NCBI GenBank assembly: GCA_964522105.1
Contig: CAZFVA010000008.1
Location: 20,225-84,224 of the forward strand
DNA: 64,000 nt
Direction of reading: 5' to 3'
From: an uncultured Anaeromyxobacteraceae bacterium
Lineage (GTDB): Bacteria > Myxococcota_A > UBA9042 > DTJE01
Part shown: positions 2,814-61,602 of the stretch, one piece after another
How positions within the stretch are numbered: the first letter of the stretch is position 1
How the letters are laid out: each line of letters opens with the position of its first letter
Position numbers and translations under genes: made by a program
The notes under the pieces: model-generated
What the model was told of the DNA's origin: nothing
What the model saw: the letters and a program-made list of their open reading frames with translations, nothing else
The model's database searches: none

Positions 2814-4208
2814 TCATTTACCAAGCAAATCCAAAACCTTACCATGCACACCGAAAAAGTCACGTCCGCTCATGCCCAGAATTACATCACCGACATCAGC
2901 ACTGGCAACAGCTTCGGCCGCAAGTTCATCCATGTCCGCGATAATCGCCGCCGGAGTCCCCCGGGCGCTGATGTCAGAAACAAGGCGGGCCATGTCGATT
3001 TTCTGGTCCTGGGGAAGGCCATCGGCCTTTTCAAAAGGACTGCAGAACAGCACACGATCAGCCTGGGAAAACGCGTCTACATATTCAGACTGAAAAACCT
3101 TACGACGACTGGTGTTTGATTCCGGTTCGAACAACGCGATGATTTTGCTGCCGGGATACGCCAGCCTTACCGCGCGGATAGTCTCGCGGACGGCCGTCGG
3201 GTGATGGGCAAAATCGTCAATGACTGTGACCCCGCGCGCAACACCTTTTACTTCCTGACGTTTTTTGATGCCTGAAAAGGAAATAAGCGCATCAGCCAGT
3301 CGCGAATTGACTGCCCCGATTTCATGCAGAACGCCAAGAGCGGCAATCGTATTTGAAAGGTTATGTCTGCCAATCAACGGCGAAACGAACCGGCCGACGA
3401 CAACTTCATTGCAGATAAGATTAAAGCTGACCCTGCCCCCGGCCCACTCGATGCCAGTCGCATGCCACCAGCCTTCGTCGATGCCGAAAGTGCGGACTGT
3501 GGCCGCTGTTTCTGTGGCCGCCGCCGCCGCGTTGGCATCGTCAACTGGTATCAGCAGCGGGCTTCCCGCAGGCATGATCTTCGCAAATTTCGCAAACGAC
3601 GCGATTACTGCCGCAAGGTCGGCATAGATGTCAGCATGGTCAAATTCGACGTTATTGATGATTGCGGCCTGCGGCGCATAGTGAAGGAATTTCGGCCCCT
3701 TATCAAAATAGGCCGTATCGTACTCGTCGCCTTCAACTACAAAAAATCGGCCCGCCCCTGCCCTGAAATTGGACCCGAAATCGAGCGGCACCCCACCCAC
3801 CAGATAACCGGGATCAAACCCCTGGGCATACAGAAGCCACGACAACAGCGACGATGTCGTTGTTTTGCCGTGCGTTCCGGTCACGACAACCGGAAACCTG
3901 CCTGCCAGATAGTGTTCACGCAAAGCTTCCGGAAAAGACATGAACGGGATGCCGCGTGCCCGCATCGCTTCGGCTTCAGGATTGTCGCGCCTCATCACGT
4001 TCCCGACAACGACAAGGTCAGGTTCCCAGTCCAGATTGCTGCCGTCATAAGGTGACATGACGTCTATCTTCAGGCTGGCAAGCAGGTCGCCGACCGGCGG
4101 GTACGGATACACCCTGTCAGAACCCCTGACTTCATGACCTGAATCCTGAAGCAACCCGGCAACTGCCGACATTGCGGTACCGCCAATCCCCATAACGTGA
4201 ATCTTCAT
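2814..4208 (-). CDS. mpl: UDP-N-acetylmuramate:L-alanyl-gamma-D-glutamyl-meso-DAP ligase (murein peptide ligase)
   Basis: Begins MKIHVMGIGGTAMSAVAGLL, has the Mur ligase P-loop VTGTHGKTTTSSL and the DDFAHHP motif. ATG at 4208. Confidence 0.85.
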   Translation of the reverse strand: MKIHVMGIGGTAMSAVAGLLQDSGHEVRGSDRVYPYPPVGDLLASLKIDVMSPYDGSNLDWEPDLVVVGNVMRRDNPEAEAMRARGIPFMSFPEALREHYLAGRFPVVVTGTHGKTTTSSLLSWLLYAQGFDPGYLVGGVPLDFGSNFRAGAGRFFVVEGDEYDTAYFDKGPKFLHYAPQAAIINNVEFDHADIYADLAAVIASFAKFAKIMPAGSPLLIPVDDANAAAAATETAATVRTFGIDEGWWHATGIEWAGGRVSFNLICNEVVVGRFVSPLIGRHNLSNTIAALGVLHEIGAVNSRLADALISFSGIKKRQEVKGVARGVTVIDDFAHHPTAVRETIRAVRLAYPGSKIIALFEPESNTSRRKVFQSEYVDAFSQADRVLFCSPFEKADGLPQDQKIDMARLVSDISARGTPAAIIADMDELAAEAVASADVGDVILGMSGRDFFGVHGKVLDLLGK

Positions 4209-4300
4209 GACCTGACCTCCCCGGGACCAATCCGGCCCGGCTTCTGACGCCGATTCTATCCCGGGAACTGAAACTACACTAAATGGAACGACCCGCCGCG

Positions 4301-4329
4301 TTGACGTACGGGCGGCACGCAGGTATAAT
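4301..4329 (+). promoter_or_regulatory. Consensus sigma70-type promoter (TTGACG-17nt-TATAAT) driving the radical SAM/GT2 operon
   Basis: ttgacg at 4301-4306, a 17-nt spacer, and tataat at 4324-4329, only ~8 nt before ATG 4338. The transcript is either leaderless or the true start is the AAGGA-preceded ATG near 4371. Confidence 0.5.
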
Positions 4330-4337
4330 CGGCCTAC

Positions 4338-5486
4338 ATGACCACGCGGGAAATGAAGGAAAAACGGCGCATGCACGATTCCAGTTTGCTTAGTTCTGCC
4401 ATGATTCTGGGACGATCGATGGTGCGGTGCGTCATTGGCAGACCAAGCCCGACAATGCTGATTCTGGAACCGACTCTGCGATGCAATTCCCGCTGCATTA
4501 CATGTTACAACCGGAAAAATCTGAATCAATCTGGTGCAGACCTCGACGTCGCGACTTGTCGAAGGATTGCAGCAGACCTGCCCGACCTGCTTCTTCTGGA
4601 AATCAGCGGGGGCGAACCGTCATTACACAAGGAACTCCCCGATCTGATTGCCGAATTCGTAAAAGCCACACCAGTAAAATATATCAGCATCCCCACCAAC
4701 GCCATCATGCCCGACGCAGTGGAAAAGATGGCCCGGGAAGTCTGCAATGTATTCAAGGGCTTTGTAGGTATTGGCCTGTCGATGGACGGTATTGGCGAAA
4801 CTCATGACGCCATCCGGGGTGTGAACGGCAATTTTGATTCTTTGCAGGAAACGTACAGACGTCTGGTCGTTCTTAAAAAGACTCTGCCCAACCTTCATAT
4901 CAGTGTAAATACATGTATTTGTTCGCAGAATGAATCATCTTACCGGGATATTCTTTCCTGGGTTGCTGATAACTGGCCGGAAATTGAAGGTCACAGCATC
5001 AGCCTTGTAAGGGCACCGGGAACGGACCAGGCCAGAATGGATTGCGCCGGATTTCTGAAAAGGGAAGGCAAGTACCTTAAAGGACAGGCGCGGTTGCGTG
5101 ACGGGTATCGCCTCGGTCTGGCCGGTCAATTAAACAAGCTGTTCTGGGGGACCTATTACTCCGAGGCGCTGAAATATCATCGCGGACAGCCTCGACACTG
5201 GCGATGTTCGGCTGGGAGTGGATCCATCTACATTGACGCTTTCGGTTCTGTGCATACCTGCGAGCTGCGTGATCCGATTGGTTCACTGCGTAACCCCGGA
5301 ACAAGTTTAAGCAGCATACTTAACAGCGCGGCTGCAAATCGCGAACGCCTTGAAATAGATACCGGAAAATGCTCATGTGACCATTCCTGTTTTCTTCAGC
5401 ACAGCGCCTTTACAAGACCTGGAAACATCGGTTTCTGGTGGCGCGGCCTGATGAATTCCCATGATGAAGGCATCCAATATGACTAA
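4338..5486 (+). CDS. Radical SAM protein with C-terminal SPASM/twitch-like Cys-rich domain
   Basis: CNSRCITC forms the CxxxCxxC motif. Downstream lie GGEP and C-terminal CSAGSGSIYIDAFGSVHTCE...CSCDHSC clusters. The start is uncertain, between 4338 and ~4420. Confidence 0.8.
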   Translation: MTTREMKEKRRMHDSSLLSSAMILGRSMVRCVIGRPSPTMLILEPTLRCNSRCITCYNRKNLNQSGADLDVATCRRIAADLPDLLLLEISGGEPSLHKELPDLIAEFVKATPVKYISIPTNAIMPDAVEKMAREVCNVFKGFVGIGLSMDGIGETHDAIRGVNGNFDSLQETYRRLVVLKKTLPNLHISVNTCICSQNESSYRDILSWVADNWPEIEGHSISLVRAPGTDQARMDCAGFLKREGKYLKGQARLRDGYRLGLAGQLNKLFWGTYYSEALKYHRGQPRHWRCSAGSGSIYIDAFGSVHTCELRDPIGSLRNPGTSLSSILNSAAANRERLEIDTGKCSCDHSCFLQHSAFTRPGNIGFWWRGLMNSHDEGIQYD

Positions 5487-6558
5487 CCCTGTCATAGGCA
5501 TCGTTGTGATATTCAGGTTTCGGACAAGTTACGTTGATCAGTGCATCCAGAATCTGCTTAAGATGGAAGGCGGTCCCTGGCCGCTGGTGATTGTGCCGGA
5601 TCAATATGTCCCGGAATATGATGGACTCGCAATTCAGGTGCCGCGAAAAGCAGGCATTTCGGCAAAACGGAATTTCGGAGTTAACCATTTACCCCCGGAA
5701 TGCACACATGTCGCGTTCATCGATTCTGACGCATATCCAAGGGTTGACTGGCTTGTCAACGCTCGTGCCCGACTTCAACAGGCAGATGATTCTGTCGCCG
5801 CAATTTGCGGACCGACAATGACCCCTCCGGACGATTCGTGGTCGCGCAAGATTTCTGGACACGCGCTCAGCAGCACTTTAGTGATGGGTCCAACGCTCAG
5901 TCTCCTTTGCCGCGACACCGGCCCTGTACAGCCCGTCCGGGAAGCTTCGACATGCAATCTGATCGTCAATCTGGAAACCTTTCGGTCAGTCGGTGGTTTC
6001 GATGAAAACTTGCTGACTTCCGAAGATATTGCCCTCGTTTACGCCATCATCGACGCCGGCAACCAGATACTGCGTGATCCGCAGGTGGTCGTTTTTCACC
6101 ACAGGCGTGACTTGCTGCACTTCTGGCTGCAATGGTTTAACGAGGGACTCGCCCTGCGACAGCGCAGAAAGTCTAAACAGGGATACTCGCTGAAGATCTG
6201 TCTTCCTTCGGTTAAGATGCTGGCAATGACTGCTCTGGCATTATCAGCCTTCTGGATTGGAACGACCGCCCTGCTAATCCTTGCTGCCCTCCAAGTAGTT
6301 GAGTTTACTATCTTCTTTATAGATCGGATTATCGCACGCGTTCCAGTTGGCGAAGCTTTCGGGGCAGCTCTGGCGATGTGGGGCTTTCCAAAGGCTTACG
6401 GATTCGGCGGTCACTTATCTTATGTTCTTAGCAAGAATATATATGTTTTTAACCGTAACGACCCCCCGGCAACTACCTGTGTAATAAAAACCGCCATTGT
6501 CCGCCGGTTTACAAAGGAAATGCCGAAACTGGACCTGAAAATCAGTGATAACGCGTGA
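5461..6558 (+). CDS. Family 2 glycosyltransferase (GT-A) with C-terminal transmembrane segments
   Basis: GT2 N-terminal fold with VIVPDQY...FIDSDA (DxD) and 3-4 hydrophobic helices at the C-terminus. It overlaps the rSAM gene. An alternative ATG at 5479 overlaps the rSAM TAA stop, which suggests translational coupling. Confidence 0.75.
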   Translation: MMKASNMTNPVIGIVVIFRFRTSYVDQCIQNLLKMEGGPWPLVIVPDQYVPEYDGLAIQVPRKAGISAKRNFGVNHLPPECTHVAFIDSDAYPRVDWLVNARARLQQADDSVAAICGPTMTPPDDSWSRKISGHALSSTLVMGPTLSLLCRDTGPVQPVREASTCNLIVNLETFRSVGGFDENLLTSEDIALVYAIIDAGNQILRDPQVVVFHHRRDLLHFWLQWFNEGLALRQRRKSKQGYSLKICLPSVKMLAMTALALSAFWIGTTALLILAALQVVEFTIFFIDRIIARVPVGEAFGAALAMWGFPKAYGFGGHLSYVLSKNIYVFNRNDPPATTCVIKTAIVRRFTKEMPKLDLKISDNA

Positions 6559-6800
6559 AATTCATCAAGTAACCTCCCCTGACACATTTCCAGGGCCGTT
6601 TCAAGAAGTGCGCACAATGCACGCATCCCGGTTTATTTGTCTAACCCTGATGGCCGCAGACGCTTGAAGCGTTGACGCTGAACCCGCGTGGCACAATCTA
6701 CGGCTGGCACCAGACACCGGAACAATTATCGAAACGTCAGAGCTTCAAAAACCGAAATGCCTGCCGTGTTTTGCCCCCCCCTTCCTAAAAGGAGATTCAA

Positions 6801-8033
6801 ATGAAAAAGCGAACAGAAAACATGCCTGCGACGGTAGAAGACCATCTTTTCGACAGAGTTGCAGCAATACTGGAACAGGCTCGTGCAAACGTGGTTCGAG
6901 CCGTAAACCACAACATGGTCATCGCATACTGGGCCATCGGCCGCGAGATTGTGATAGACCTGCAGCGTGGCGAGAGCCGTGCTGATTATGGGCAGCAGGT
7001 ATTCAATGAACTATCCGAACGATTGACCGTAAAATATGGGGCGGGCTGGTCAAAAACAAACCTGTGGAGTTTCAGACTCTTCTATTTGTTATATGCCGAT
7101 CGAGTACCATCAATTCCACACACACTGTGTGTGGAATCTTCAGAACAAACTGATTTAATTGACTTAAGTCGTAATTCGAAACACTGGCCCATCAAGGATT
7201 CTGATCATTCGAGAGCCGCTGGCCCCGATTTAACTTTTCATCTTTCGTGGTCTCACTACCGAACCCTGATACGGGTAGAAAACGACGAAGCTCGGATTTA
7301 CTATGAACACGCGGCAATCGCCGAAGGCTGGAGCGTAAGAGTACTTCAGCGTCAAATCAGCTCGCAATATTTTGAACGTCTGGCAAGAAGCCGTAACAAG
7401 CGAAAAAAGGCAGACGGAAATTTTCCCATTGTGGTTGAACCCGATGCCGTTCCAGTCGCCACAACTGAGCATGAACCGATTCGCGCACTGATTGACACCA
7501 TTAAGGACCCGTACGTATTGGAATTTCTGGGCATCCCTGATCCAACTGCATTACATGAATCCGATCTTGAAACCGCGATCATCGGGCATCTACAGGAATT
7601 CATGCTCGAATTGGGAAAAGGATTTGCTTTCGTGGCAAGGCAGAAGCGATTGTCATTTGATGGTGACGACCTGTATGTTGACCTGGTCTTCTATAACTGC
7701 TTTCTGAAGTGCTACCTGTTGATTGACCTGAAGATGGGAAGACTGACGCATGGTGATGTCGGTCAGATGGATGGATACGTACGGATGTTTGACGACCTGT
7801 ACGCGGCGGCCGACGACAACCCGACCATCGGCCTGATCTTGTGCACCCAGAGTAACAACACAGTAGCCCGATATTCGGTTCTGAACGATCGCAGACAAAT
7901 ATTCGCCAGCAAGTACGTCACATATCTTCCGACCGAAGCAGAATTTTCCATTGAAATCACCCGCGAAAGAGCCCTGGCCGAACAACAGATTGCGGCGACG
8001 GCGGAGCGTCAAATATCCAAAATCTGCCGTTAA
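6801..8033 (+). CDS. YhcG/DUF1016-like PDDEXK nuclease family protein
   Basis: AYWAIGREIV...RADYGQQVFNELSERLTVKYGAGWSKTNLWSFRLFYLLY plus LSWSHYRTLIRVENDEARIYYE are typical of YhcG/DUF1016. A GGAG RBS precedes the start. Confidence 0.7.
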   Translation: MKKRTENMPATVEDHLFDRVAAILEQARANVVRAVNHNMVIAYWAIGREIVIDLQRGESRADYGQQVFNELSERLTVKYGAGWSKTNLWSFRLFYLLYADRVPSIPHTLCVESSEQTDLIDLSRNSKHWPIKDSDHSRAAGPDLTFHLSWSHYRTLIRVENDEARIYYEHAAIAEGWSVRVLQRQISSQYFERLARSRNKRKKADGNFPIVVEPDAVPVATTEHEPIRALIDTIKDPYVLEFLGIPDPTALHESDLETAIIGHLQEFMLELGKGFAFVARQKRLSFDGDDLYVDLVFYNCFLKCYLLIDLKMGRLTHGDVGQMDGYVRMFDDLYAAADDNPTIGLILCTQSNNTVARYSVLNDRRQIFASKYVTYLPTEAEFSIEITRERALAEQQIAATAERQISKICR

Positions 8034-8214
8034 CGATCAGAATTCCTGGTTCTTCATCCAAATCTGCGCCACCGACCAGGCTTTTATAAAACTCACTTTT
8101 GCCCGCCATTACGATTGCTTGACTCTTAAATCAGGGCCACCAATACTTAACCCGTAGATTGATTTCATGAAAGCAAGGTTCTGGACGCCATCACCGGCGG
8201 ACGGAGGGGGCGGC

Positions 8215-9330
8215 ATGGTGTCTGACAGGCTGAATCAAGTGGCGGATGAACCGTTTCTGGAAGCCCGCCTGCGGGCAGGTGCAGAAGGTCGCGCGCTGGG
8301 ACTGGGACTGTCGTCGTACTTCCCGCTGGAAGTGTTTGATGCCTTCGGGCTGGCGGGCATTCGCATGCCACCCGGGCCGATGACCGGCTACCCACGCGCC
8401 GATGGCGTCCTGCAGGCGTTTGCATGCACCACCGTCCGTTCGATGCTGGAAAGGCTTCTGCAGGCCGATCTGCCTGTCGGTCTGGTCGGTTCCACCAGCG
8501 GTTGCGATGCGCTGACAACCGTGCCGGGCATCCTTAACGCCGCGATACCATCGCTGCCGGTCGTTTCGCTGCGCCTTGCAGTCGCGGTTGAATCCGAAGC
8601 CGCCAGTCACCACGCAACACTTACACTTAAAGACATGTGCCGCGAAGCCGCCGCAATACTGGGACGGGCAATTGACATGGACCGCCTGGAAACGGCCATC
8701 GTCGAACGCGAAGCCGTGCGCATCCGAGTTGGAGACCTGTTTGACCGTCTGCCATCACGTGACGTCCCGGCATCCAGGATTTACGCCGCCGCCATTGCTG
8801 CCCAGGTCATGGCCCCGGCGGACTTTCTTGCGCTTTGCGAAACGTCGTTTGCGGTCGGTGCGGCTTCGGTAGATGACACAACCAAAACTACGGTTATCCC
8901 GATCCTGCTGTCCGGTGAAATGATTCCGTCCGTCCAGTGGATTCGCGACCTTGAAGATATGGGTGCAGCCATCGTATCGGACGACACCAACACAGGCTCG
9001 CGGGAAGCCGGTCGCCGTGTTCGCGCCGACCAGCCTGACCGGTTGCAGGCCATCGCCGAAAGCCTGATTCACCGCCCGGTCCACAGCCCTGAAAGGTTCG
9101 TATCAGGTCGCCCGGAAGGCGTCGCAGCGCGGGCCAGTGACGCAGGCGCGAAAGCCGCGATCCTGCTGCACTACAAGTTCTGCGACCCGAGCGCGTTCGA
9201 GGCACCGTCACTGGTGGCCGCCCTGAAAAAGGTCGGCATCCCGTCAATCGTGCTGGAAATCGATCGCCAGATCACGATGACAGGGGGCGACCGAACCAGG
9301 GTCCAGACTATGCTGGAGGCGCTGCCATGA
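8215..9330 (+). CDS. 2-hydroxyacyl-CoA dehydratase / benzoyl-CoA reductase D-component family subunit (HgdB/BcrC-like)
   Basis: HGD-D family features including LHYKFCDP. The start was chosen at ATG 8215, behind a GGAGGGGG RBS. The stop overlaps the next gene's ATG (ATGA). Confidence 0.7.
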   Translation: MVSDRLNQVADEPFLEARLRAGAEGRALGLGLSSYFPLEVFDAFGLAGIRMPPGPMTGYPRADGVLQAFACTTVRSMLERLLQADLPVGLVGSTSGCDALTTVPGILNAAIPSLPVVSLRLAVAVESEAASHHATLTLKDMCREAAAILGRAIDMDRLETAIVEREAVRIRVGDLFDRLPSRDVPASRIYAAAIAAQVMAPADFLALCETSFAVGAASVDDTTKTTVIPILLSGEMIPSVQWIRDLEDMGAAIVSDDTNTGSREAGRRVRADQPDRLQAIAESLIHRPVHSPERFVSGRPEGVAARASDAGAKAAILLHYKFCDPSAFEAPSLVAALKKVGIPSIVLEIDRQITMTGGDRTRVQTMLEALP

Positions 9331-10526
9331 TTAAGTTGCGTGCGAACAAGCGCCTGCAGTCGACTATCCGCAACCAGGTTCTGTGGACCAGATTCGGCTC
9401 AAAAATCGGGCGTCCGGTGGCATGGGTCACGTCAGGATCGCCGGTCGAAATTGTACTTGCCGCAGGTTTTATACCGTTTTACCCGGAAAACCATGCGGCC
9501 ATCTGTGCGGCACGCGGGATGTCCATGGAACTGGCAGAACAGACCGAAGCTGAAGGATATTCCCGCGATCTGTGCAGCTATTTCCGCGTCGATATCGGCA
9601 GTCAGATCAGTGGCAAGTCACCGATGGGCCATCTGGTTCCCCCGGATGTCATCCTGCTGTCAAACAACATCTGCGGCACAGTCCAGAACTGGTTCCGACT
9701 GACGGCCGAACGATTCAATGTACCGCTGCTGTTTCTGGACACACCTTTTAACGACGGTCCACCGACCGATGCTGACCTGGCCTACGTCCGCGAACAGATG
9801 CTCCACATAGCGGCAGAAGCCGGCCGAATAAGCGGCCACCGCGTAACCGATGCCCGTCTTGGCCGGGTCGTATCACGATCCCGGAAAGCCCTGGAACTGT
9901 GGGCCGAAGTCCTTGGAATGGCGACCGGACACCCGGCACCGTTCACATCGTTCGACGCATTTGTCCACATGGCCCCGATCGTGTCCATGCGCGGCACCAG
10001 ACGCTGCATTTCTTATTACAAGAAACTGCGTGACGAGGTTCGCGAACGCGCAAAGGCAGGCATTTCGTCTGTGCCCGACGAACGCGTCCGCGTGGTCTGG
10101 GACAACATCGCGATCTGGCCGGCGCACAAAGAGCTGAAGAAGCTTTTTGAAAAATACCACGTGTCTCTGGTGGCCGACACATACACCAGCGCATGGAGTG
10201 CCGAGGACTTAAACCCTGCGGACCCGTTCACCAGCCTGGCCCGCGTCTATACCGACATCATTTTGAACCACGGTGCAGAACACCGCGTCAAAGTCATTTC
10301 AGATATGGTGCGCAAGTTTGACGCCAGCGGCTTCGTGCTGCATTCGAACCGGTCGTGCAAACGCTATTCGCTTGGCCAGTTCGGCGTAAAAAACGCAGTG
10401 TCGGCCGCCACCGGCGCCACCGGTGTCGTAATCGAAGCCGACATGGCCGATCCACGCTCGGTCTCGTTCGAACACCTCCAGCAACGGCTTGTGCCGTTCT
10501 TCGAGGCACTGGGGGCATCCGAATGA
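9327..10526 (+). CDS. 2-hydroxyacyl-CoA dehydratase D-component family subunit (HgdA-like paralog)
   Basis: VAWVTSGSPVEIVLAAGFIPFYPENHAA and SCKRYSLGQ motifs of the HgdA/BcrB family. Overlaps its neighbours by ATGA at both ends. Confidence 0.7.
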   Translation: MIKLRANKRLQSTIRNQVLWTRFGSKIGRPVAWVTSGSPVEIVLAAGFIPFYPENHAAICAARGMSMELAEQTEAEGYSRDLCSYFRVDIGSQISGKSPMGHLVPPDVILLSNNICGTVQNWFRLTAERFNVPLLFLDTPFNDGPPTDADLAYVREQMLHIAAEAGRISGHRVTDARLGRVVSRSRKALELWAEVLGMATGHPAPFTSFDAFVHMAPIVSMRGTRRCISYYKKLRDEVRERAKAGISSVPDERVRVVWDNIAIWPAHKELKKLFEKYHVSLVADTYTSAWSAEDLNPADPFTSLARVYTDIILNHGAEHRVKVISDMVRKFDASGFVLHSNRSCKRYSLGQFGVKNAVSAATGATGVVIEADMADPRSVSFEHLQQRLVPFFEALGASE

Positions 10527-29034: not shown

Positions 29035-30474
29035 TTAATTAAAATCCCAGCCGTCATCTGCGGGCACCGGCGGTTTTGCCGGCGACCCGCCTTTGTCTTC
29101 TGCAGGCTGATCCACCGGCGATTCATCGGCACCATCTTCGTCTGCTTTTTCAGGACTGCTGACACCTTCCGCCTTGTCTTTTTCTGCTTTTTCAGCTGCA
29201 GAGCGCATCAAAGCCCCCTGCTGCTCAACGAAGTCAGCCATGCGGACGGCCTCGTCAATGTATTTATCAGCAGTTTCAGCGGTTCCCCCGCCGATCCTGA
29301 CCATAGTCTTGTACCGTTTCAAAAATTCAGCGCCGCGCCGGTAGTGATCCGCCTTGTCCATGCCATCAGCCGGGATATTTTCAATCTCGGCCACCCCCAT
29401 GTTGAAATAACATTCGGCACAAAGGGGGTTAATCTTGAGCGCTTTATCAAAAGCTTCAAAACCATTACCGAATTGCCTGTTCTTTCTGAAGGCGTTACCA
29501 AGATTCACAAACGCCTGCCAGCACACCGGATCAAGCTCAACTGCCAGGCTGAACTGCTCGACAGCGCCGTCAACGTCCCCGGCATTAAGGTAAAGAAGAC
29601 CGAGATTATTCCGCGCCCCGACAAGCCGCGGGTCAAGCTCCAGCGCTTTCGTAAACAATTCAATGGCACGACGGTTGTTGCCGTCGTTCATCTCGAGCTT
29701 TCCGAGGATGTCGTAAACATCGGCCTCTTCCTTGACCCTGATGGACTGAAGCAGGATAAATCTGGCCGCATCAACACGCCCCATCGCCAGATACGCCGAC
29801 GCCATGCTGACCATAATCTCGGTGTTGGACTCGTCCTTCTTCAGCAATTCGGTGTCAAGACGCAGAGCATCCATACCACGGCCGGCCATCATCATCGCAT
29901 CTGCAAGCGCCAGGCCCAGATTCAAACGACCTTTATTCTTCTCGTACAACGATTCCAGCAGAACGGCCGGTTCATTTTTTCTGCCCAGTTCCCTGCTGAT
30001 TTCAATATACAGACGCAGAATCGTCCTGCTGTTCGGCGCCAGAGTAACTGCCTGAGCTGCATTATCGACAGCCGCCAGGAGTGAACCCGATGCCCTCTGG
30101 GCCACGGCAAGGTTATAGTAGTCAACGGCAATGGCAGTCCCTGACGCGACAGCCACCTGAAGAATTTTCATCCCTTCGGTCATCCGAAGATTCTTGAACT
30201 GTGCGATAGCTTCGGTGGAAGCTGCGGACGAAGTCGGCACCGCATCAACGGGCTGCGCGGCGGAATCATCCGGCACCACTTCCACATCCTGAGCGGTCGA
30301 ATCCGCTGAAACTTCAGGCTGCGCAACTTCTGTAACTGACTGTTCCACAGGCGGTATTTCGATCGGAGACGGTGTTTCAACAGGCTGGACCGCGGCACAC
30401 CCGGCCACAACAATTGTGACCGCAGCAATCAGCGCGGACCTGAAATCACTTGTGAGGAAGAATCCCTTAATCAC
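29035..30474 (-). CDS. TPR-repeat lipoprotein (GltE/AglT-like, 479 aa)
   Basis: Lipobox VVAGC, an Ala/Pro/acidic linker, multiple TPR units (…AIELFTKALELDPRLVGARNNLGLLYLNAGDVDGAVEQF…), and an acidic C-terminal tail. Confidence 0.7.
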   Translation of the reverse strand: MIKGFFLTSDFRSALIAAVTIVVAGCAAVQPVETPSPIEIPPVEQSVTEVAQPEVSADSTAQDVEVVPDDSAAQPVDAVPTSSAASTEAIAQFKNLRMTEGMKILQVAVASGTAIAVDYYNLAVAQRASGSLLAAVDNAAQAVTLAPNSRTILRLYIEISRELGRKNEPAVLLESLYEKNKGRLNLGLALADAMMMAGRGMDALRLDTELLKKDESNTEIMVSMASAYLAMGRVDAARFILLQSIRVKEEADVYDILGKLEMNDGNNRRAIELFTKALELDPRLVGARNNLGLLYLNAGDVDGAVEQFSLAVELDPVCWQAFVNLGNAFRKNRQFGNGFEAFDKALKINPLCAECYFNMGVAEIENIPADGMDKADHYRRGAEFLKRYKTMVRIGGGTAETADKYIDEAVRMADFVEQQGALMRSAAEKAEKDKAEGVSSPEKADEDGADESPVDQPAEDKGGSPAKPPVPADDGWDFN

Positions 30475-33400
30475 AGAGCCTCCTCAAACGAAACGGCCCG
30501 CGTAACCCTGTCAACAGGAACAGAAATGTCAGCTTTCTGAAGCGGATATTCCTGCGGAAGGTACTTGTTCAAAGCTTCGATGGCTTTAACTGTCCAGACG
30601 TTGGCAATTTTCAGTTCGCGACCCTGTGTAATCAAAGTTGCGTACCGCTGCTGAGCCGTCTGAAGATAGATCTGGGCCTGATCCTCGATGGCCGTCTGAT
30701 AGATGTCCATTTCCTCTTCAGACATCTCGGGAATCTCGGCAGCAAACAAAGACTTGGCAAACAGTTCATGAATCTGAGCCAGTCTGAAATACGCCGCAGA
30801 TGTCCACTCAAGATTCTTGTACCTGATGACCTTCTTATAGGCCTCTTCAAGCTCGCCAAGAAGAACAGCCTTACCCTTCAGCAGGCGTCCCTGAACGGGC
30901 AGCGACCCCTGAAACTGAATCGCTTCGTACTTCTTGAATTCAGGTTCAATAAGCAGGAACACCATCTTTGCGGGCCAGGCGGCCACCGGTGTGTCCGGCT
31001 GAAGCGCCCGGGCATCAAATTCGGAGATGATCTGATTTGCAAGTGAAAGCCACTCACGCTTGTCGTTACGGGCCAGCGCCATATCGGACAGACTGGCAAG
31101 AACCTCGATTACAACGGCCGAATGGTCAGGCGACTTACTGAATTGTTTCAGGAACTGCCTGTAGATTGCAGACGCCTGTTTGTCATCTTTCAGTCTCTGG
31201 TAAAGCTTTGCAGCCCGCACCAGCGTTGCCCCCGCCGCCTTGTCAGACGGGAAAGCTGCAACAAACTTCACATAGGCGGAAGCAGCTTCGGCCAGTTTAC
31301 CCTGGGCCTCAAGCAGCGAGGCAGCCTGAAGTCTGGCATAAGAGACGTCCTTTGACGTCGGGAACCTTGATACAAGCGCTTCATATGAAACTACGGCCTG
31401 CTCGAAATCAAAGAACTTCCCTGCATTTTCGGCCAGTTGCATCAACGCGCCTTCAACAAATCCCGACTTTGGATAGTCAGACACAATCCGAAGATAGATT
31501 TTGGCAGCCGAATCGTAATGATGAACCTTTTCATACGCCAGGGCAGCGTTCTGCAGGGCCTTGTCGGACAAAGTCCCGGTCGGCTCGCTGTCAACAATCG
31601 CTATGAATGCTTCGGCCGCCTTGATGTATTCACCCTGATCAAAGGCCCTTTCAGCTTCCTTGAACTGGGCCCCCAGTTTGAAAAGCTTCACTTCCTTTGC
31701 CAGTGCCGTGCGATCTTCAGGCTTGCCGAGCTTCTGCTCGTCAATGCGTTTCGCCCAGACGGCAATGTTTTCCCAGTCGTTTTCAAGACGATACGAATTG
31801 ATGATATTTGCAGCTGCGTATGCCGCCACGACATCCTGCGGCCACGTCTCGATGATTTTCAGATAGCGCTGTCTGGCTTCATCCAGATTGTTGTACTTGT
31901 AGAACTCGGTCGCCACGCGGTAAGCCATACGACCTGGCAATTCAGGATCTGTCTGTGACTTTGTCTTCAAAGACACAAAGAAATCAGCATCTTCTACCCA
32001 CTGAAGCGTCAATTCAGGAATCGGAAGCGGAGTCACCTGCACTTTGCCTTCAATCTCGGGCATCGGAACGTCGGTCACGTCACCCGTCTCGCCGGGTACC
32101 GCAGACGCGGCCAACTTACCGTCCTTAACCTGTTTACCGGCTTCACGCTCTATTGAATCAATGACATTGAAGGCCGCTGATTCAAGATATTCCGTCTTTC
32201 CTACCCAGTCCCGGACCTTGCGGTACATAAGGGAAGCTGCGTCAAACTGGAACGAAAAGTAAAGGCAGTCGGCCAGCAGATATGCGTTTTCATAGGCGTA
32301 CTTGCTTTCCGGAAAACGCCTTAAATAGTCTTCATAAACATCAGCTGCTTTGCGGTACTCGGCAAGCGAAGCAACCAGGAATTTCTCGTCCCCGCTGACG
32401 CTGGCCTGGCCCTTCAGCTCCTGCGCGCGCTTATGATGGAACTGCGCGGCCTGATTCATTGCCAGTTCAAGGCGCTTGTCGACCCGCGCAAGAACTTCCG
32501 GGTGATCTTTGTTGTGTTCGTACCAGGCGCTTCCCGGACCATAATTTCTGGCCAGGGCCAGACGCTCGTTAATGGCAGACTCGGTATCCCGCAGCGTGTC
32601 GTAAACAGAAATAATCTTTTCCATGACGGCGGCGTTGCCGGGATTCATCGGATCGCGGGCAACTACCTGACGGTAAGCCTCGATCGCCATCGGGAACTTT
32701 CTGACTTCATATTCGTCATAAAGGGCATCGGCATAGCGTTCAAGGACTTCACGCTCGTACGGTTTTCCGTCCGAAAGATACTTCAAGGCCCTTGCCACGT
32801 CGGCATCAGGATCATCAATGCCATCGCCATCCCAGTCTTCATCAGCAAGGCTGAGCCCCAGATATTCAACAGCTTCTGACCGAATCGCAACAGCACGGGC
32901 GTCCGGTTTTTCCGCATTGTCGACATACTCGATCAACCGCTTGAACGTCCCGATGGCGACAGGGTAGTTGTAGTTCTGAAAATACGACCAGGCCAGTTTG
33001 TACAACAGAATCCCGAAGTATCCGGAATCCTTCGTGTCCAGAGCCTTCTCGTATGAAGCAATGGCCTGTGTGTAATCACCAAGATCAAAGTGATACTCAC
33101 CGACCAGAAGCCACGCCTCGGGAACCCATGAACTGGTCGGGTACTTCTTGATAAGCGCAAGGAATACCTTTTCGTAACCGTCCTTGCCGGCCATCCTTAA
33201 CGTATGACCGAACGCGTACATGGCGGTGTCAACTTCCGCAAAATCCGGAAAGTCATTGATAAGTCTTGAATAAGCGGCCAATGACTTTGAATAGTCACGA
33301 TCCGGTTCAAGCGGCTCGTCCGCAAGCTTTCCCCGGTAGTACAGGTCCAGCTTCTTTTCGTAATCAGGCACTGCCTTCAGGTAGTCTTCCTGAGACTTGT

Positions 33401-33815
33401 CAAAATACAGTTTTGCAATGCGGAAAAGCATCGCCGGGGTATATGTTTTGTGGTTCGGATACCTGTCAAGGAAACGCTCAAAAACACTGATTGCCAGGTC
33501 ACGGCTGTCCCTGACATCTTCTTCAACCGCCGCCGCTTCAAGACGATGGATGCGCTCTATTGCACCACGCCGCCGATCGATTTCCTTTTTCAGCGACGCC
33601 AGAATTTCTTCGCGATACTGCTGCGCCTGCTCGTCGTAACGACCGACAAGCTGCTCGAGTACCTGAATCTCGGACTCGGAGATAGACGTTTTCCCGACAG
33701 GCGCGGCCCCTTGTTCTGAAGGTACGGCTGACGCGGTGGACGACGACACCAGCAAGGTAAAGACCATCGCCGAAGAAATAGCGGACAACAATTTGTTTAC
33801 CGTTATCCCAATCAT
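30471..33815 (-). CDS. Large periplasmic TPR-repeat protein (GltD/AgmU-like, 1114 aa)
   Basis: Signal peptide, TPR-like repeats along the whole length, 4-nt overlap with the downstream TPR gene. Confidence 0.7.
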   Translation of the reverse strand: MIGITVNKLLSAISSAMVFTLLVSSSTASAVPSEQGAAPVGKTSISESEIQVLEQLVGRYDEQAQQYREEILASLKKEIDRRRGAIERIHRLEAAAVEEDVRDSRDLAISVFERFLDRYPNHKTYTPAMLFRIAKLYFDKSQEDYLKAVPDYEKKLDLYYRGKLADEPLEPDRDYSKSLAAYSRLINDFPDFAEVDTAMYAFGHTLRMAGKDGYEKVFLALIKKYPTSSWVPEAWLLVGEYHFDLGDYTQAIASYEKALDTKDSGYFGILLYKLAWSYFQNYNYPVAIGTFKRLIEYVDNAEKPDARAVAIRSEAVEYLGLSLADEDWDGDGIDDPDADVARALKYLSDGKPYEREVLERYADALYDEYEVRKFPMAIEAYRQVVARDPMNPGNAAVMEKIISVYDTLRDTESAINERLALARNYGPGSAWYEHNKDHPEVLARVDKRLELAMNQAAQFHHKRAQELKGQASVSGDEKFLVASLAEYRKAADVYEDYLRRFPESKYAYENAYLLADCLYFSFQFDAASLMYRKVRDWVGKTEYLESAAFNVIDSIEREAGKQVKDGKLAASAVPGETGDVTDVPMPEIEGKVQVTPLPIPELTLQWVEDADFFVSLKTKSQTDPELPGRMAYRVATEFYKYNNLDEARQRYLKIIETWPQDVVAAYAAANIINSYRLENDWENIAVWAKRIDEQKLGKPEDRTALAKEVKLFKLGAQFKEAERAFDQGEYIKAAEAFIAIVDSEPTGTLSDKALQNAALAYEKVHHYDSAAKIYLRIVSDYPKSGFVEGALMQLAENAGKFFDFEQAVVSYEALVSRFPTSKDVSYARLQAASLLEAQGKLAEAASAYVKFVAAFPSDKAAGATLVRAAKLYQRLKDDKQASAIYRQFLKQFSKSPDHSAVVIEVLASLSDMALARNDKREWLSLANQIISEFDARALQPDTPVAAWPAKMVFLLIEPEFKKYEAIQFQGSLPVQGRLLKGKAVLLGELEEAYKKVIRYKNLEWTSAAYFRLAQIHELFAKSLFAAEIPEMSEEEMDIYQTAIEDQAQIYLQTAQQRYATLITQGRELKIANVWTVKAIEALNKYLPQEYPLQKADISVPVDRVTRAVSFEEAL

Positions 33816-36226
33816 TCCGGCGACTCTCCCGCTTTCTTGCTGTCCCGCTGATTTTCCTTGTTGTACGCCTGCTCAAGGACTCCCAGCGATTTCATCTTGG
33901 CGGCCCGCTTTTCGTTTAGAACCTTCAACTTCTGACGCGCCCGCTGCTGTCTTTCCCACGCAACATCAACAACACCGAGATCTGCCTCAAGAAGGACGCC
34001 TGCAATACGCTGACGGACCGATTCAAAAAGCCTGTAGCCTTCGGTCTCGGAAAACCTCCTGGAATCCATCTCGACTCTCTGAACCTCGGCCACCATGCGC
34101 TCTAGCTCGGCTTTCTCGCCAAGAACACTCTTTTCCAGGGCAGCAGCACCTGAATCAACGACCTTAAGAAGCCTGCCAACGACTTTTCTGGTTGAATCGG
34201 CGGCTGAAACGGCCTTCCCGATTACCCGTGAAGCTTCAGACATGAACTTCCCGGCATCCTTGTCAACAGACGCGCCCTTTTCAGCAAGGACGCCGGCTTC
34301 AAAGACAAGGGCCTTCATCAGAAGTTCCCTGGCCATATCAGCGTTTTTCAAAGCCATCGGGGAATTTCTTACGGACGACGCCTTTGTCACGGCATTCTTC
34401 AATTTCGCGGCTTCCACGCCAAGATCAGAAAGGGCGTTTCTGACAGTTTCCATCTCGCTGCGAATCAACTTTTCCTTTTCCGCAGAGAGGGTTACATCCT
34501 GCCTGGCCTTCTGCTCACGAATCCACTCGTCGATTCCACGGATCTGCTGATACTCAATGTTCAAAACAGCGTCGATCATGAAAAGTTGCCTTTCCATAAC
34601 CTGCATGTCTTCCCCGACGGCCTTGTCACGGGCGAGGTATTCGCTTAATTTAATCGGCCCTTCCTGGAACTTCTTATAAGCCTGCTGCCGACTTTTGACT
34701 GCCGCCTGATACTGCGCCAGGGCTTCCCCGGTCAACGCGCGACTCACAATCGGCTCAAGCTCGACAGCAAGTCGCACTGCAGCCTCAAGAAGACTGCCTT
34801 CAGAACTCTTCAGATAAAGATATTTCTGCTTCAACACGGGGAATGTCTCGATTGCGCCGCCGGACTGAAGCGTATAAAGGAGCCTGCCGACAATCTCGAA
34901 TGACTGCCTGACGTCTTCCTTTTCCGTTTTCAAGTCCTTGAACAACACACCGACCGAATGCATTCCACCATCATTCTCGAGCCATTTTGTTGTCTTTTCA
35001 GATAACGGAACCCTGACCTTGAACGCTTCGTTATCGTTGACCGTCATGTAATCAAAGTATTCAGACAGACTGCTGCGACTTGCGGCAACAGTATCAAGTT
35101 CCTTCACAACCGGGGTCAGCACACTGGAAATATCGCGGTACGCACCCTCAGCCCCGTCAATGTCACCGAGCCGGGACATTATCCGGCCACGCAAGGCGGC
35201 GGCACGAAGAGACAGGTCACCAGGTTCAAGCCGCATGACCAGAATATTCAGCACGTACACAGCGTTCTTAAGATCGCCAACCTTCACGTGAACCCACGCC
35301 GAATCGTAAAGCGAATCAAAAAACGAAGAAGAAGACTGCTCAATCTGCTGAAGACTTAGAAGGGCTTCGTCATACCTGGCCTGAAGAAACAAAATTTTGG
35401 CCTGCGCAAGCAGAGCCCTGCCCCGGACATCTATCGTTGTCTGGTCTGTGCCCTGCGTGCGGGCAGCAGCGGCAAAGCCGGCCCAGGACTCATCAAGACG
35501 TCCCGCCTCGGCATCAATCACACCCATGAAATAGCGCGCCCGCCCAAAGTCCAGAGAACCATCGGCGATAGACGAAAATACTTTGTAGGCCTTGGAGTTA
35601 TTGCCCTGGTGGTACAGAAACTTTCCATAGCAATAAAGAACATTTGGTTCGGCAAGAAGACCTGAATCTATCTTGGCGGACCATTTTTCAGCCCCGGAAA
35701 AATCATTAATTGCGACAGATGATTCAAAAAGTCTGGCAACAGCGCGACCATAATCAGCACCGGCTGCAGGATTGGCGGCCAGCATGAAATAAACGCGGGC
35801 AGCAATCAGATTGCGACTTCTATAAAGACTCTCGCCAAGCCTGAAAGCCGTACCGAAATATTCGATCGAATTCTTGCGCGAAATCTTGTCGAGCGCGTCC
35901 TTATACAGTGTAGCGGCCCTTTCATAATCACCCGATTCAAAATACAGGTCGGCATCAAGCAGACGCCTCTCGACAGGAAAGTAATTCGTAACAGCGACAA
36001 GGCTTTCAATCTCGGCATCAGCCCGCTTTAACGCTGTCTCGACATTTCCGACGTCGGCCTCGACAGACGACACCACTTGAAAAAAGCGTTCAGCATCGCG
36101 GGCCTTAATCTTTTTTCCTGATGCATAAGAAAGGGTTACAGGTGACGAGGCGACACAGAAGGCAGCACAAAGAACGACCGGTCTAAAAAAACATGAGAAT
36201 GTTTTGTCGTTAAAGAACCCGGTCAT
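33812..36226 (-). CDS. Large secreted TPR/alpha-helical repeat protein
   Basis: Signal peptide (FRPVVLCAAFCVASSPVTLSYA), TPR-like repeats in the N-terminal half and a coiled-coil C-terminal half. The start was chosen at ATG 36226 to avoid overlapping the upstream gene. Confidence 0.6.
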   Translation of the reverse strand: MTGFFNDKTFSCFFRPVVLCAAFCVASSPVTLSYASGKKIKARDAERFFQVVSSVEADVGNVETALKRADAEIESLVAVTNYFPVERRLLDADLYFESGDYERAATLYKDALDKISRKNSIEYFGTAFRLGESLYRSRNLIAARVYFMLAANPAAGADYGRAVARLFESSVAINDFSGAEKWSAKIDSGLLAEPNVLYCYGKFLYHQGNNSKAYKVFSSIADGSLDFGRARYFMGVIDAEAGRLDESWAGFAAAARTQGTDQTTIDVRGRALLAQAKILFLQARYDEALLSLQQIEQSSSSFFDSLYDSAWVHVKVGDLKNAVYVLNILVMRLEPGDLSLRAAALRGRIMSRLGDIDGAEGAYRDISSVLTPVVKELDTVAASRSSLSEYFDYMTVNDNEAFKVRVPLSEKTTKWLENDGGMHSVGVLFKDLKTEKEDVRQSFEIVGRLLYTLQSGGAIETFPVLKQKYLYLKSSEGSLLEAAVRLAVELEPIVSRALTGEALAQYQAAVKSRQQAYKKFQEGPIKLSEYLARDKAVGEDMQVMERQLFMIDAVLNIEYQQIRGIDEWIREQKARQDVTLSAEKEKLIRSEMETVRNALSDLGVEAAKLKNAVTKASSVRNSPMALKNADMARELLMKALVFEAGVLAEKGASVDKDAGKFMSEASRVIGKAVSAADSTRKVVGRLLKVVDSGAAALEKSVLGEKAELERMVAEVQRVEMDSRRFSETEGYRLFESVRQRIAGVLLEADLGVVDVAWERQQRARQKLKVLNEKRAAKMKSLGVLEQAYNKENQRDSKKAGESPE

Positions 36227-36242
36227 GTCATCTTCACCGCGG

Positions 36243-36950
36243 TTATTCGACGCCTGCGGCTTCAGCGCTATCCTGACCACCAGACAGGTCACCGGACATC
36301 AGCCGTTTCTGCTTCAGACCAAAACGAACCGATGGACGGTCCTGAAGAGGGGCAGCAAGACCGCCCTTTTCGAAGGAAACCACACTGACCTGAGCTTCCA
36401 TTCCGGAATTGGCAAAGAATGTGAAAGACGATTTCACAATAAACGCATACCCGTCCACGTATGTGAACAGTCCGTTATTCGCCCGCATTTTGATTTCTAC
36501 GGAAAGCAGATGATTGCCAGTGGCCACGCTGCCGGTAAAAACCTCGAACGAATCTGCCGACGCCAGTTTTCCGTCACGATTGGTCCTGAAATAAACCTTT
36601 TCGCCATCCAGAAAATAAACAATTTCTTCGATATCCATCGACGAAGACATCGTGTTGCGATGGACTATCCGGGCCTTGGATTCAGAAATCAGGTTATGCA
36701 TAATCTGCTCGCGCAGAAGCAGAAGCCTGGTCTTTGAATCAAAGACACGACCTTTAAGTTCTTCAACCCGTTCCCGAAGCGCCCTCAACCGAACATCGAA
36801 TCCAGCACCCCCGGCATCACCGGCAGTTGAGGCAGTTGCGGCAGTTGCGGCCGTATCCGCAGGTGCAGTACCTGTGGAATCAGGCTGTTGCGCCAGTGCC
36901 AGGACAGGGCAGACAGTCAAAACACAATAAATGATTAACGCCCGGATCAT
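36243..36950 (-). CDS. Secreted hypothetical protein (coiled-coil + beta-rich C-terminus)
   Basis: MIRALIIYCVLTVCPVLALA signal peptide behind a GGAG RBS, an Ala/Thr-rich linker, a coiled-coil, and a beta-rich domain. Confidence 0.45.
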   Translation of the reverse strand: MIRALIIYCVLTVCPVLALAQQPDSTGTAPADTAATAATASTAGDAGGAGFDVRLRALRERVEELKGRVFDSKTRLLLLREQIMHNLISESKARIVHRNTMSSSMDIEEIVYFLDGEKVYFRTNRDGKLASADSFEVFTGSVATGNHLLSVEIKMRANNGLFTYVDGYAFIVKSSFTFFANSGMEAQVSVVSFEKGGLAAPLQDRPSVRFGLKQKRLMSGDLSGGQDSAEAAGVE

Positions 36951-61386: not shown

Positions 61387-61602
61387 ATGAAAAGCAGTTT
61401 TCACAAGAAGATATACCCTCTTAAAGCCGTAAAAGCGGCCGTCGAGGCCTTTTCCGAAGTCGCAACAATCACCGTCGGAAAGGACGGTGATTACATCACA
61501 GTTGAACTCGAATCGGGCAACCCCACAGAAGATGCTGAATTTATGGGGGAATTCGAAAACTTCGTTCTGGGCGAAACTACAATGTTGCGAGGCGTCAAAT
61601 GA
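61387..61602 (+). CDS. Hypothetical small protein (71 aa), possible peptide chaperone or HxsD-like accessory
   Basis: GGAG RBS. The stop overlaps the ATG of the following rSAM (ATGA). No Cys and a beta-strand-rich centre (DYITVELE). Family unknown. Confidence 0.45.
   Translation: MKSSFHKKIYPLKAVKAAVEAFSEVATITVGKDGDYITVELESGNPTEDAEFMGEFENFVLGETTMLRGVK

Follow-up and report, generated by a model that had tools for sequence, protein, structure and literature searches.

In a 64,000-nucleotide (64 kb) stretch of DNA from an uncultured Anaeromyxobacteraceae bacterium (assembly GCA_964522105.1, contig CAZFVA010000008.1, positions 20,225 to 84,224 of the forward strand; hereafter the window), positions 4301-6558 read as a promoter-driven, translationally coupled two-gene operon that encodes a twitch-like radical S-adenosylmethionine (SAM) enzyme (rSAM) and a membrane-anchored family-2 glycosyltransferase (GT2). 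The rSAM gene lies at 4338..5486 on the + strand (maximal extent, 382 aa) and the GT2 gene at 5479..6558 on the same strand (359 aa, a 100% match to P0035). Judged by sequence comparison across genomes, the two proteins form one evolutionary and presumably physical unit. The window pair is one more member of an extensive, so far uncharacterised family and is not unique to the window. We regard as established which domains the two proteins contain, that the GT2 is anchored in the membrane, that the adjacency is conserved and that natural fusions exist, as described below.

In the reading favoured here, to which we give nearly an even chance, the GT2 would charge a lipid carrier of the membrane, probably polyprenyl phosphate, with a sugar, and the twitch-like rSAM would then modify that sugar at the cytoplasmic face. 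A wider proposal is possible and clearly less probable: that these proteins constitute a previously unrecognised bifunctional GT2-radical SAM family of Bacteria and Archaea, split or in a single polypeptide, with a new reaction class, namely radical SAM chemistry on a sugar attached to polyprenyl phosphate or lipid (for example oxygen-independent epimerisation, deoxygenation or a carbocycle-forming ring contraction). If true, it would mean an undescribed envelope glycoconjugate or lipid head group in Planctomycetaceae, Thermoanaerobaculia, Nitrospirota, the candidate phyla radiation (CPR), DPANN and Methanosarcinales.

Conservation, fusion and distribution of the pair

The GT2 open reading frame (ORF) as listed spans 5461-6558, but agreement with the homologues favours the annotated start, ATG 5479. 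The junction of the two genes (5466..5486, + strand) was read from the sequence: a GAAGG Shine-Dalgarno sequence (5466-5470) stands 8 nt upstream of ATG 5479, and from this ATG to the rSAM stop codon (TAA, 5484-5486) the two genes overlap by 8 nt (ATGACTAA). An overlap of the stop with a GT2 ATG was already part of the initial annotation, and a relative with 92% identity (L093) has kept the junction. In orthologous pairs a 4-nt overlap of the rSAM and GT2 genes is usual.

A word-indexed search for relatives returned 34, and an exhaustive profile search returned 2,319 cluster representatives (50% identity) at E<1e-30. The 150 best of these 2,319 all match over the full length at E below 1e-77. 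Species-representative genomes were scanned, and 80 loci were analysed with hidden Markov models (HMMs) built here, with a rSAM counted as close at 400 bits or more. A GT2 gene is adjacent on the same strand at 50 of the 50 testable loci with a close rSAM, upstream of it at 46 (GT2-rSAM) and downstream at 4 (rSAM-GT2); four further loci with rSAMs of at least 400 bits are situated at contig edges, outside the 50. At every locus looked up individually, the rSAM gene abuts a same-strand GT2 gene, while the flanking genes vary between lineages. The rSAM-GT2 order of the window is also found in a Planctomycetaceae clade and at one Elusimicrobiota locus. In the Planctomycetaceae clade the GT2s diverge in step with the rSAMs, with identities of 48, 42 and 43% for GT2 versus 52, 53 and 52% for rSAM.

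Natural fusions are present in eight of the best 150 of the 2,319 representatives: six GT2-rSAM, one rSAM-GT2, and one in which the rSAM is joined to a WecG/TagA protein. In the rSAM-GT2 fusion, P0078, an orthologue of the window rSAM is followed by one of the window GT2, as in the window; identities to the window proteins are 43% for the rSAM part (E 2e-95) and 36% for the GT2 part (E 1e-55), the latter match taking in the membrane region. Fusions of the GT2-rSAM type turn up in many samples, and one cluster of them (P0130) has 16 members, 13 of which are full length at 686-687 aa. In the third type, P0152 (608 aa, encoded on a 112 kb ENA contig), a WecG/TagA-family glycosyltransferase (PF03808, 1.6e-50) takes the place of the GT2 as fusion partner of the rSAM; enzymes of this family work on undecaprenyl-PP-linked acceptors. 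Between the domains of most GT2-rSAM fusions lie two hydrophobic helices, which implies that both catalytic domains would lie on the same, cytoplasmic, side of the membrane.

The initial annotation had proposed to check whether the pair is conserved as a unit in other genomes, and the adjacency in all testable close relatives together with fusions in both domain orders answers that it is. A fortuitous adjacency of genes with unrelated functions might be argued from the window itself, where the flanks are unrelated housekeeping genes (a Mpl-like ligase, a YhcG nuclease and dehydratase subunits). The comparative data refute it, and its probability is negligible: close relatives from different phyla keep the two genes together, in either order, their coding regions overlap, and fusions recur independently, one of them (P0078) joining the orthologues of the window rSAM and GT2.

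Nearly all hosts are uncultured organisms. They include Thermoanaerobaculia and other Acidobacteriota, Nitrospirota, Planctomycetaceae, Elusimicrobiota, Fibrobacterota and Sumerlaeota, and further Patescibacteria, Saccharibacteria, Nano-, Aenigm- and Woesearchaeota, Methanosarcinales and Hydrothermarchaeota. The members from Thermoanaerobaculia are 78-93% identical among themselves. In the source records the proteins bear generic or incorrect names ("MoaA/NifB/PqqE/SkfB family", "Fe-coproporphyrin III synthase", "heme synthase", "hypothetical"), and a literature search found no paper on the rSAM-GT2 pair. The system is compact, with two genes or one fused polypeptide, and the family is widespread and highly conserved in abundant uncultured soil and sediment lineages. 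The natural fusions are ready-made constructs for heterologous expression.

The two proteins and the proposed reaction

The first gene had been described as a 382-aa radical SAM protein with a CxxxCxxC motif, and this assignment stood. PF04055 scores 44.9 bits against a cut-off of 29.5, and the CX3CX2C motif of the radical SAM [4Fe-4S] cluster (C49, C53, C56; 4482..4505, + strand) is invariant in 148 of 148 aligned family members, as is the SAM-binding GGE motif (G91-G92-E93). Pfam and NCBIfam scans covered the window proteins, eight family members and neighbours. For the rSAM every curated NCBIfam model stays under its cut-off, the best being NirJ1 with 55 versus 650 bits; the protein thus falls into no well-characterised family. 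HpnH, one of the families suggested earlier for comparison, scores 49 versus 225 bits. NirJ, AhbC, HpnH, PqqE and MftC were considered as identities and rejected, since their matches span the generic rSAM core only.

The C-terminal region had been called Cys-rich and "SPASM/twitch-like", of which the SPASM part was not retained. The auxiliary-cluster region (5205..5390, + strand, from the family alignment) comprises C290, C308 (G303-x4-C308), C345-x-C347-x3-C351 and H349. Conservation among the 148 members is 99% for C290, C308, C345 and C347, and 93% for C351. In the AlphaFold2 (AF2) model strands are predicted at 296-299 and 304-306, with C290 and C308 just outside them. A two-cluster SPASM domain was rejected: there are five conserved C-terminal Cys versus the seven-Cys motif CX9-15GX4C...CX2CX5CX3C...C, and SPASM PF13186 scores 17.7 bits on the window rSAM, under its cut-off of 21.5. 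Because the conserved Cys are enough for only one auxiliary [4Fe-4S] cluster, the protein is better described as twitch-like. The twitch subfamily model NF033640 scores 51.9 bits against a cut-off of 170.

The AF2 model of the rSAM (pLDDT 86) begins with a single N-terminal helix of ~30 residues. Its top 46 Foldseek matches are all rSAM enzymes, and the nearest solved folds are of the SPASM/twitch type. The matches include SkfB, anSME, BlsE, SuiB, DesII, GDGT-MAS, MoaA and BtrN, at template modelling (TM) scores of ~0.42-0.57 and 13-20% identity, and profile searches against PDB sequences agree with them. The likeness of the predicted structure to these solved ones is only generic. The structural neighbours include the sugar-modifying twitch enzymes BlsE, DesII, BtrN and SpeY.

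Some of these matches bear on the order of the two reactions. The rSAM could act first, on a soluble nucleotide sugar, as a dehydratase, deaminase or decarboxylase like DesII, BlsE or viperin, and the GT2 would then transfer the product to a membrane or polymer acceptor. BlsE and DesII, which work on nucleotide or nucleoside sugars, are among the best structural matches, BlsE having the highest target-normalised TM score (0.66) and a profile match of 1.7e-9, and fusion and adjacency would be equally compatible with channelling in that direction. We nevertheless consider this order unlikely. No nucleotide-binding sequence signature was identified in the rSAM, membrane tethering in either fusion order makes less sense for an enzyme with a soluble substrate, and the known cases in which a glycosyltransferase and a rSAM work on a membrane lipid, HpnJ and the calditol synthase Cds, put the rSAM after the transfer (PMC13459092, PMC9092360).

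The second protein had been annotated as a family-2 glycosyltransferase with C-terminal transmembrane helices, which the motifs and the predicted fold bear out. D82-S-D84 (5722-5730) and E182-D183 (6022-6027) are invariant in 29 GT2 relatives, together with K63-R64 and H207-H208-x-R210. The AF2 model (pLDDT 89) has a GT-A domain followed by C-terminal helices, and a fold search with it gave 301 PDB matches at E<=0.001, the 50 listed being all GT2-fold (GT-A) enzymes. Its best analogues among solved structures are GT2s embedded in the membrane, namely Chlorella virus hyaluronan synthase (TMq 0.60-0.63) and PcManGT. Taken together, the DSD and ED motifs, the GT-A fold predicted by AlphaFold and the C-terminal membrane helices confirm the assignment. 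The Pfam GT2 models all stay below gathering (PF13632, 20.5 vs 27; PF00535, 19.4 vs 23.3; PF10111, 18.5 vs 27.3), and more distant GT2 partners such as P0087 easily exceed these cut-offs; by its sequence the window GT2 is a divergent subfamily of family 2. No curated NCBIfam model reaches its cut-off for it. The best curated family is MftF (TIGR03965; 94.4 bits vs a cut-off of 280, E 7e-27).

The C-terminal membrane region (6190..6426, + strand) contains the AF2 helices 238-255, 262-285 and 290-316 and the invariant Y307-G308, and the strongly hydrophobic segments are 240-258 and 263-281. This is the architecture of ArnC, GtrB and DPMS: a GT-A domain and two C-terminal transmembrane helices, with the C-terminus in the cytoplasm, as the fusions to a C-terminal rSAM imply. 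A processive synthase of the hyaluronan, cellulose or chitin type was also considered and rejected, as the family has no QxxRW and its 2-3 membrane helices are too few for a channel. The region equivalent to Q(Q/R)xRW reads HHRR...Q218-W219 in the window GT2, and the family consensus is QxxxYG, with no RW.

From these features we infer which acceptor is used, which enzyme acts first and what radical chemistry takes place, as follows. The cytoplasmic GT-A domain (DSD, ED), anchored by two C-terminal hydrophobic helices, would take its sugar from a nucleotide-sugar donor and attach it to an acceptor in the cytoplasmic leaflet. Polyprenyl phosphate is the likeliest acceptor because of the ArnC/GtrB-like architecture (cf. 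ArnC, GtrB, DPMS) and the linkage to GT-C genes in relatives; a membrane lipid (cf. HpnI) is the alternative, because a distant clade of the rSAM has HpnI-like partners. In the second step the rSAM, with its CX3CX2C cluster and one predicted auxiliary [4Fe-4S] cluster, would cleave SAM reductively, and the 5'-deoxyadenosyl radical would abstract a hydrogen from the sugar. The product may be an epimerised, oxidised, deoxygenated or ring-contracted sugar, and the sequence does not say which. A third step is suggested from relatives only, in which the modified lipid-linked sugar would become a cell-envelope building block. In several lineages an adjacent GT-C enzyme (PMT_2 or YfhO) would take up the sugar; in the window genome any such enzyme would have to be encoded elsewhere.

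In the Acidobacteriota and in the window the pair stands alone, and accessory genes recur outside those lineages. PMT_2 or YfhO genes, which encode GT-C enzymes, are found near the pair in L001, L013, L015, L017, L025, L026 and L038, and beside relatives of the GT2 in L008 and L096. A PMT_2 GT-C gene also lies 153 nt downstream of the P0078 fusion (L098, L099). GT-C enzymes use polyprenyl-phosphate-linked sugar donors. The L096 locus, that of a GT2 relative, resembles an Arn cluster and encodes a formyltransferase, a polysaccharide deacetylase, Wzx and PMT_2. Sugar-pathway genes in the relatives' loci comprise DegT aminotransferases, NAD-dependent epimerases/dehydratases, RmlD-like reductases and methyltransferases. 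Radical modification of a sugar or glycolipid, one of the two roles that the initial annotation had thought plausible, fits this context of GT-C enzymes, sugar aminotransferases, epimerases, HpnI-like glycosyltransferases and deacetylases.

B12-binding rSAMs adjoin the pair in 12 loci from very different phyla. Antisense shadow ORFs and over-extended ORFs in high-GC loci disturbed a single-linkage clustering of neighbours, which served only to spot this B12-rSAM cluster. The best curated matches of the adjoining B12-rSAMs are mostly HpnJ or BchE, with one Sden_1168-type P-methyltransferase, and all are below cut-offs. The pair and a B12-rSAM make up a tight three-gene unit in archaea and bacteria of unrelated phyla (L058, 2627-6203; L068, 1015-4588; L013, 3992-7702; L002, 799-4330). 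Within these units HpnJ is the best match of the B12-rSAM, except in L013, where it is the Sden_1168-type P-methyltransferase, and scores are 171-240 bits versus cut-offs near 575. The B12-rSAM looks like an accessory third component, without a counterpart in the window.

A distant clade of the rSAM in Acidobacteriota (L059, L069, L075, L084-L088) lies at ~4700-7900 in its loci, between an HpnI-like GT2/GT21 gene and a MqnA-like (PF02621) gene. The HpnI-like glycosyltransferase matches TIGR03472 at 1.4e-35, below the cut-off, and in L080 a polysaccharide deacetylase replaces it. These loci may represent a different lipid head-group pathway. The pairing with an HpnI-like lipid glycosyltransferase also speaks for a reading in which the rSAM acts on the lipid part, by C-C bond formation, adenosylation or cyclisation of an isoprenoid or acyl chain (cf. 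Tes/GDGT-MAS, Mss, HpnH), and the GT2 adds the head group. GDGT-MAS is the second-best PDB sequence-profile match of the rSAM (2e-11) as well as a structural match, and NCBIfam gives weak matches to HpnH (3.8e-13) and Tes (5e-8). These last two are far under their cut-offs (49 vs 225 and 32 vs 450 bits) and involve the generic rSAM core only, and the rSAM family is without the extra cluster and the lipid-binding domains of Tes. The usual neighbours are sugar-pathway and GT-C genes, and the pair is common in CPR bacteria and DPANN archaea, which largely lack lipid synthesis. Action on the lipid part is accordingly rated as quite unlikely.

The second role suggested in the initial annotation was the glycosylation of a radical-modified peptide, after the logic of glycocins and sactipeptides. 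The rSAM would modify a residue of a protein or of a peptide that is made on the ribosome and modified after translation (RiPP), and a MftF-like GT2 would glycosylate the product, as in mycofactocin biosynthesis. MftF is the best curated family of the GT2, and the peptide maturases SkfB and anSME are top structural and profile matches of the rSAM. The scores argue otherwise (MftF, 94 vs 280 bits; MftC, 30 vs 265 bits), with no RiPP maturase model near its cut-off. There is no MftA, MftB, MftD or MftE, no peptidase, and no PqqD-like RiPP recognition element (RRE) domain, only ~35 residues preceding the rSAM core. The absence of a precursor peptide ORF near the pair, already remarked on in the initial annotation, extends to the relatives: no conserved small ORF was detected in either, the small ORFs at ~6480-6830 of the window are unconserved noise, and a 59-aa ORF upstream of the L004 rSAM is missing in L003, whose rSAM is identical. 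The pair alone is conserved and its flanks are variable, and a peptide pathway appears very improbable.

Several points weigh against a GT2 that charges a lipid carrier followed by a rSAM that modifies the carrier-bound sugar. Most loci, all of them from Acidobacteriota, have no GT-C gene within 6 kb, so the GT-C link is limited to some lineages, and the clusters that do contain GT-C genes often hold a separate small DPM1-like GT2, which is possibly the real carrier-loading enzyme. The 64 kb window contains no GT-C enzyme, flippase, sugar-nucleotide enzyme or B12-rSAM, as judged by tblastn with six B12-rSAMs and by Pfam scans of 20 further large ORFs, which gave housekeeping genes. On the window GT2, the NCBIfam models of ArnC, GtrB, DPMS and HpnI have no match at E<=0.01, and its best curated match, MftF, glycosylates a peptide-derived cofactor. 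Among the structural neighbours of the rSAM the peptide-modifying enzymes (SkfB, anSME, SuiB, CteB) are as many as the sugar-modifying ones, all at a modest TM of ~0.55. Once the reaction is solved, lipid-linked sugars would be a new substrate class for radical SAM enzymology. It could also explain orphan glycolipids and envelope modifications in anaerobes, CPR and DPANN, and would correct the annotations "heme synthase", "PqqE/MoaA family" and "hypothetical".

Promoter, start codon and the rest of the window

A sigma-70-type promoter precedes the rSAM gene (4301..4329, + strand), with TTGACG at 4301-4306, a 17-nt spacer and TATAAT at 4324-4329, and a gap of 8 nt, read from the sequence, between the end of TATAAT and ATG 4338. 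It had been called perfect; the sequence, spacing and 8-nt distance are as described, but the match to consensus is 11/12, the consensus being TTGACA. It is the only site of at least 11/12 on both strands of the window, where 0.35 such sites per 64 kb are expected under a first-order Markov null. The promoter is placed inside a 129-nt divergent intergenic region between the rSAM gene and a gene for a Mpl-like Mur ligase (2814-4208, - strand). In L093 both hexamers and ATG 4338 are unchanged, while the spacer and the flanking bases on both sides vary. We take 4301-4329 to be a real promoter. An Rfam scan of 3800-7200 found no significant RNA element. The divergent Mur ligase scores 380.6 bits with the Mpl equivalog model, just under the cut-off of 388.7, and also 291 bits with MurC.

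The start of the rSAM gene is called differently by different pipelines: NCBI and Logan give 361 aa (M22, ATG 4401), and JGI gives 382 aa (M1). For the 92% relative the Logan start corresponds to M6 (377-aa equivalent). Alternative ATGs lie at 4353, 4371 and 4401. Alignments of homologues extend 10-20 residues upstream of M22, and for this reason the NCBI start at ATG 4401 of the identical protein P0001 (361 aa) is probably too short. The geometry of M1 fits a leaderless transcript, with transcription expected to start at ~4336-4338, and leaderless translation from ATG 4338 is possible. A Shine-Dalgarno-led start at ATG 4371 (M12) is at least as good: AAGGA at 4356-4360 stands at a 10-nt spacing from it, and the N-terminal length counted from M12 is that of the L002 orthologue. 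The latter has TTGACA-18-TACACT, a ~35-nt leader and a GAAGGAAG Shine-Dalgarno sequence 5 nt before its ATG. Over the first 40 codons the differences between the window and L093 are for the most part non-synonymous, which does not discriminate coding sequence from leader.

Downstream of the pair, 243 nt past the GT2 gene, the YhcG-like PDDEXK nuclease of the initial annotation was recovered by Pfam at 6801-8033 (+ strand; DUF1016 N-terminal domain, E 2e-54). It is not next to the pair in any relative looked up and is likely an independent, possibly mobile, gene unrelated to it. It is followed by two overlapping HGD-D family genes (8167-9330 and 9327-10526, + strand), which encode subunits like those of 2-hydroxyacyl-CoA dehydratase/benzoyl-CoA reductase; the second protein scores 235 bits with HadB versus a cut-off of 750. 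Such genes point to an anaerobic lifestyle. Another radical SAM protein (61599-63086, + strand, 495 aa) is a full-length HxsB match (TIGR03978, 532 bits vs a cut-off of 370). It probably belongs to a His-Xaa-Ser peptide-modification system that runs off the window end, a second rSAM system unrelated to the pair.

Two very large tetratricopeptide-repeat (TPR) proteins (1114 and 826 aa) are encoded in tandem at 30471-36292 and 37127-40332 (- strand) beside a RodA/PBP2 pair of the elongasome. A 577-aa ORF at 51106-52839 (+ strand) has no Pfam or NCBIfam match. The other window genes are housekeeping (DnaK, GroEL, pyruvate kinase, MoeA and an ABC-F protein).

Comparison with known systems

To our knowledge, glycosyl transfer followed by radical SAM action on the membrane-bound sugar is known from a few genetically defined cases, namely HpnI/HpnJ, calditol synthase and pactamycin PtmC, none of which has a biochemically established mechanism. 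In the HpnI/HpnJ system a membrane lipid first receives its sugar from a membrane GT2, after which the sugar undergoes remodelling by a radical SAM enzyme (PMC13459092). The HpnI/HpnK/HpnJ module, which makes bacteriohopanetetrol cyclitol ether, is like the window pair in this logic. Among relatives the likeness goes further, as the distant rSAM clade lies behind an HpnI-like glycosyltransferase and the B12-rSAMs that adjoin the pair in 12 loci are HpnJ-like. HpnJ itself differs: it is a rSAM of ~470 aa with a B12-binding domain, whereas the window rSAM is a twitch-like protein of ~360 aa without one. The window GT2 has no HpnI match, and the window showed no hopanoid genes.

Calditol synthase Cds of Sulfolobus is a rSAM proposed to ring-contract a hexose after its attachment to the membrane lipid (PMC13459092, PMC9092360). 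By its description it shares with the window pair the logic of making a glycolipid and then modifying it by radical chemistry. Cds is archaeal and tied to acidophiles, whereas the rSAM-GT2 family extends across anaerobic bacteria, CPR and DPANN.

MftC/MftF of the mycofactocin pathway likewise combine a rSAM of the SPASM/twitch group with a membrane GT2, and MftF is the nearest curated family of the window GT2. They differ in that the window pair is without a precursor peptide, chaperone, peptidase or MftD and occurs alone or fused. BtrN, DesII, BlsE and SpeY resemble the window rSAM in size, in the single auxiliary cluster that is predicted for it and in overall fold. They have no GT2 as gene neighbour or fusion partner, both the enzymes and their substrates are soluble, and the similarity is at the level of 13-20% identity and TM ~0.42-0.57.

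In the ArnC/ArnD/ArnT and mycobacterial DprE1/E2 systems a sugar is modified while on its polyprenyl-phosphate carrier. The modifier in the window pair is a radical SAM enzyme rather than a deformylase or an FAD/NADH epimerase, and the GT2 matches neither the ArnC nor the GtrB model. ArnC nevertheless has the same architecture as the window GT2, a GT-A domain and two C-terminal transmembrane helices in ~320-360 aa. In the Arn pathway the sugar is altered on its carrier by a second enzyme, at the cytoplasmic face, before a GT-C enzyme (PMT_2) uses it, and PMT_2 or YfhO genes flank the pair or the fusion in several lineages of the rSAM-GT2 family.

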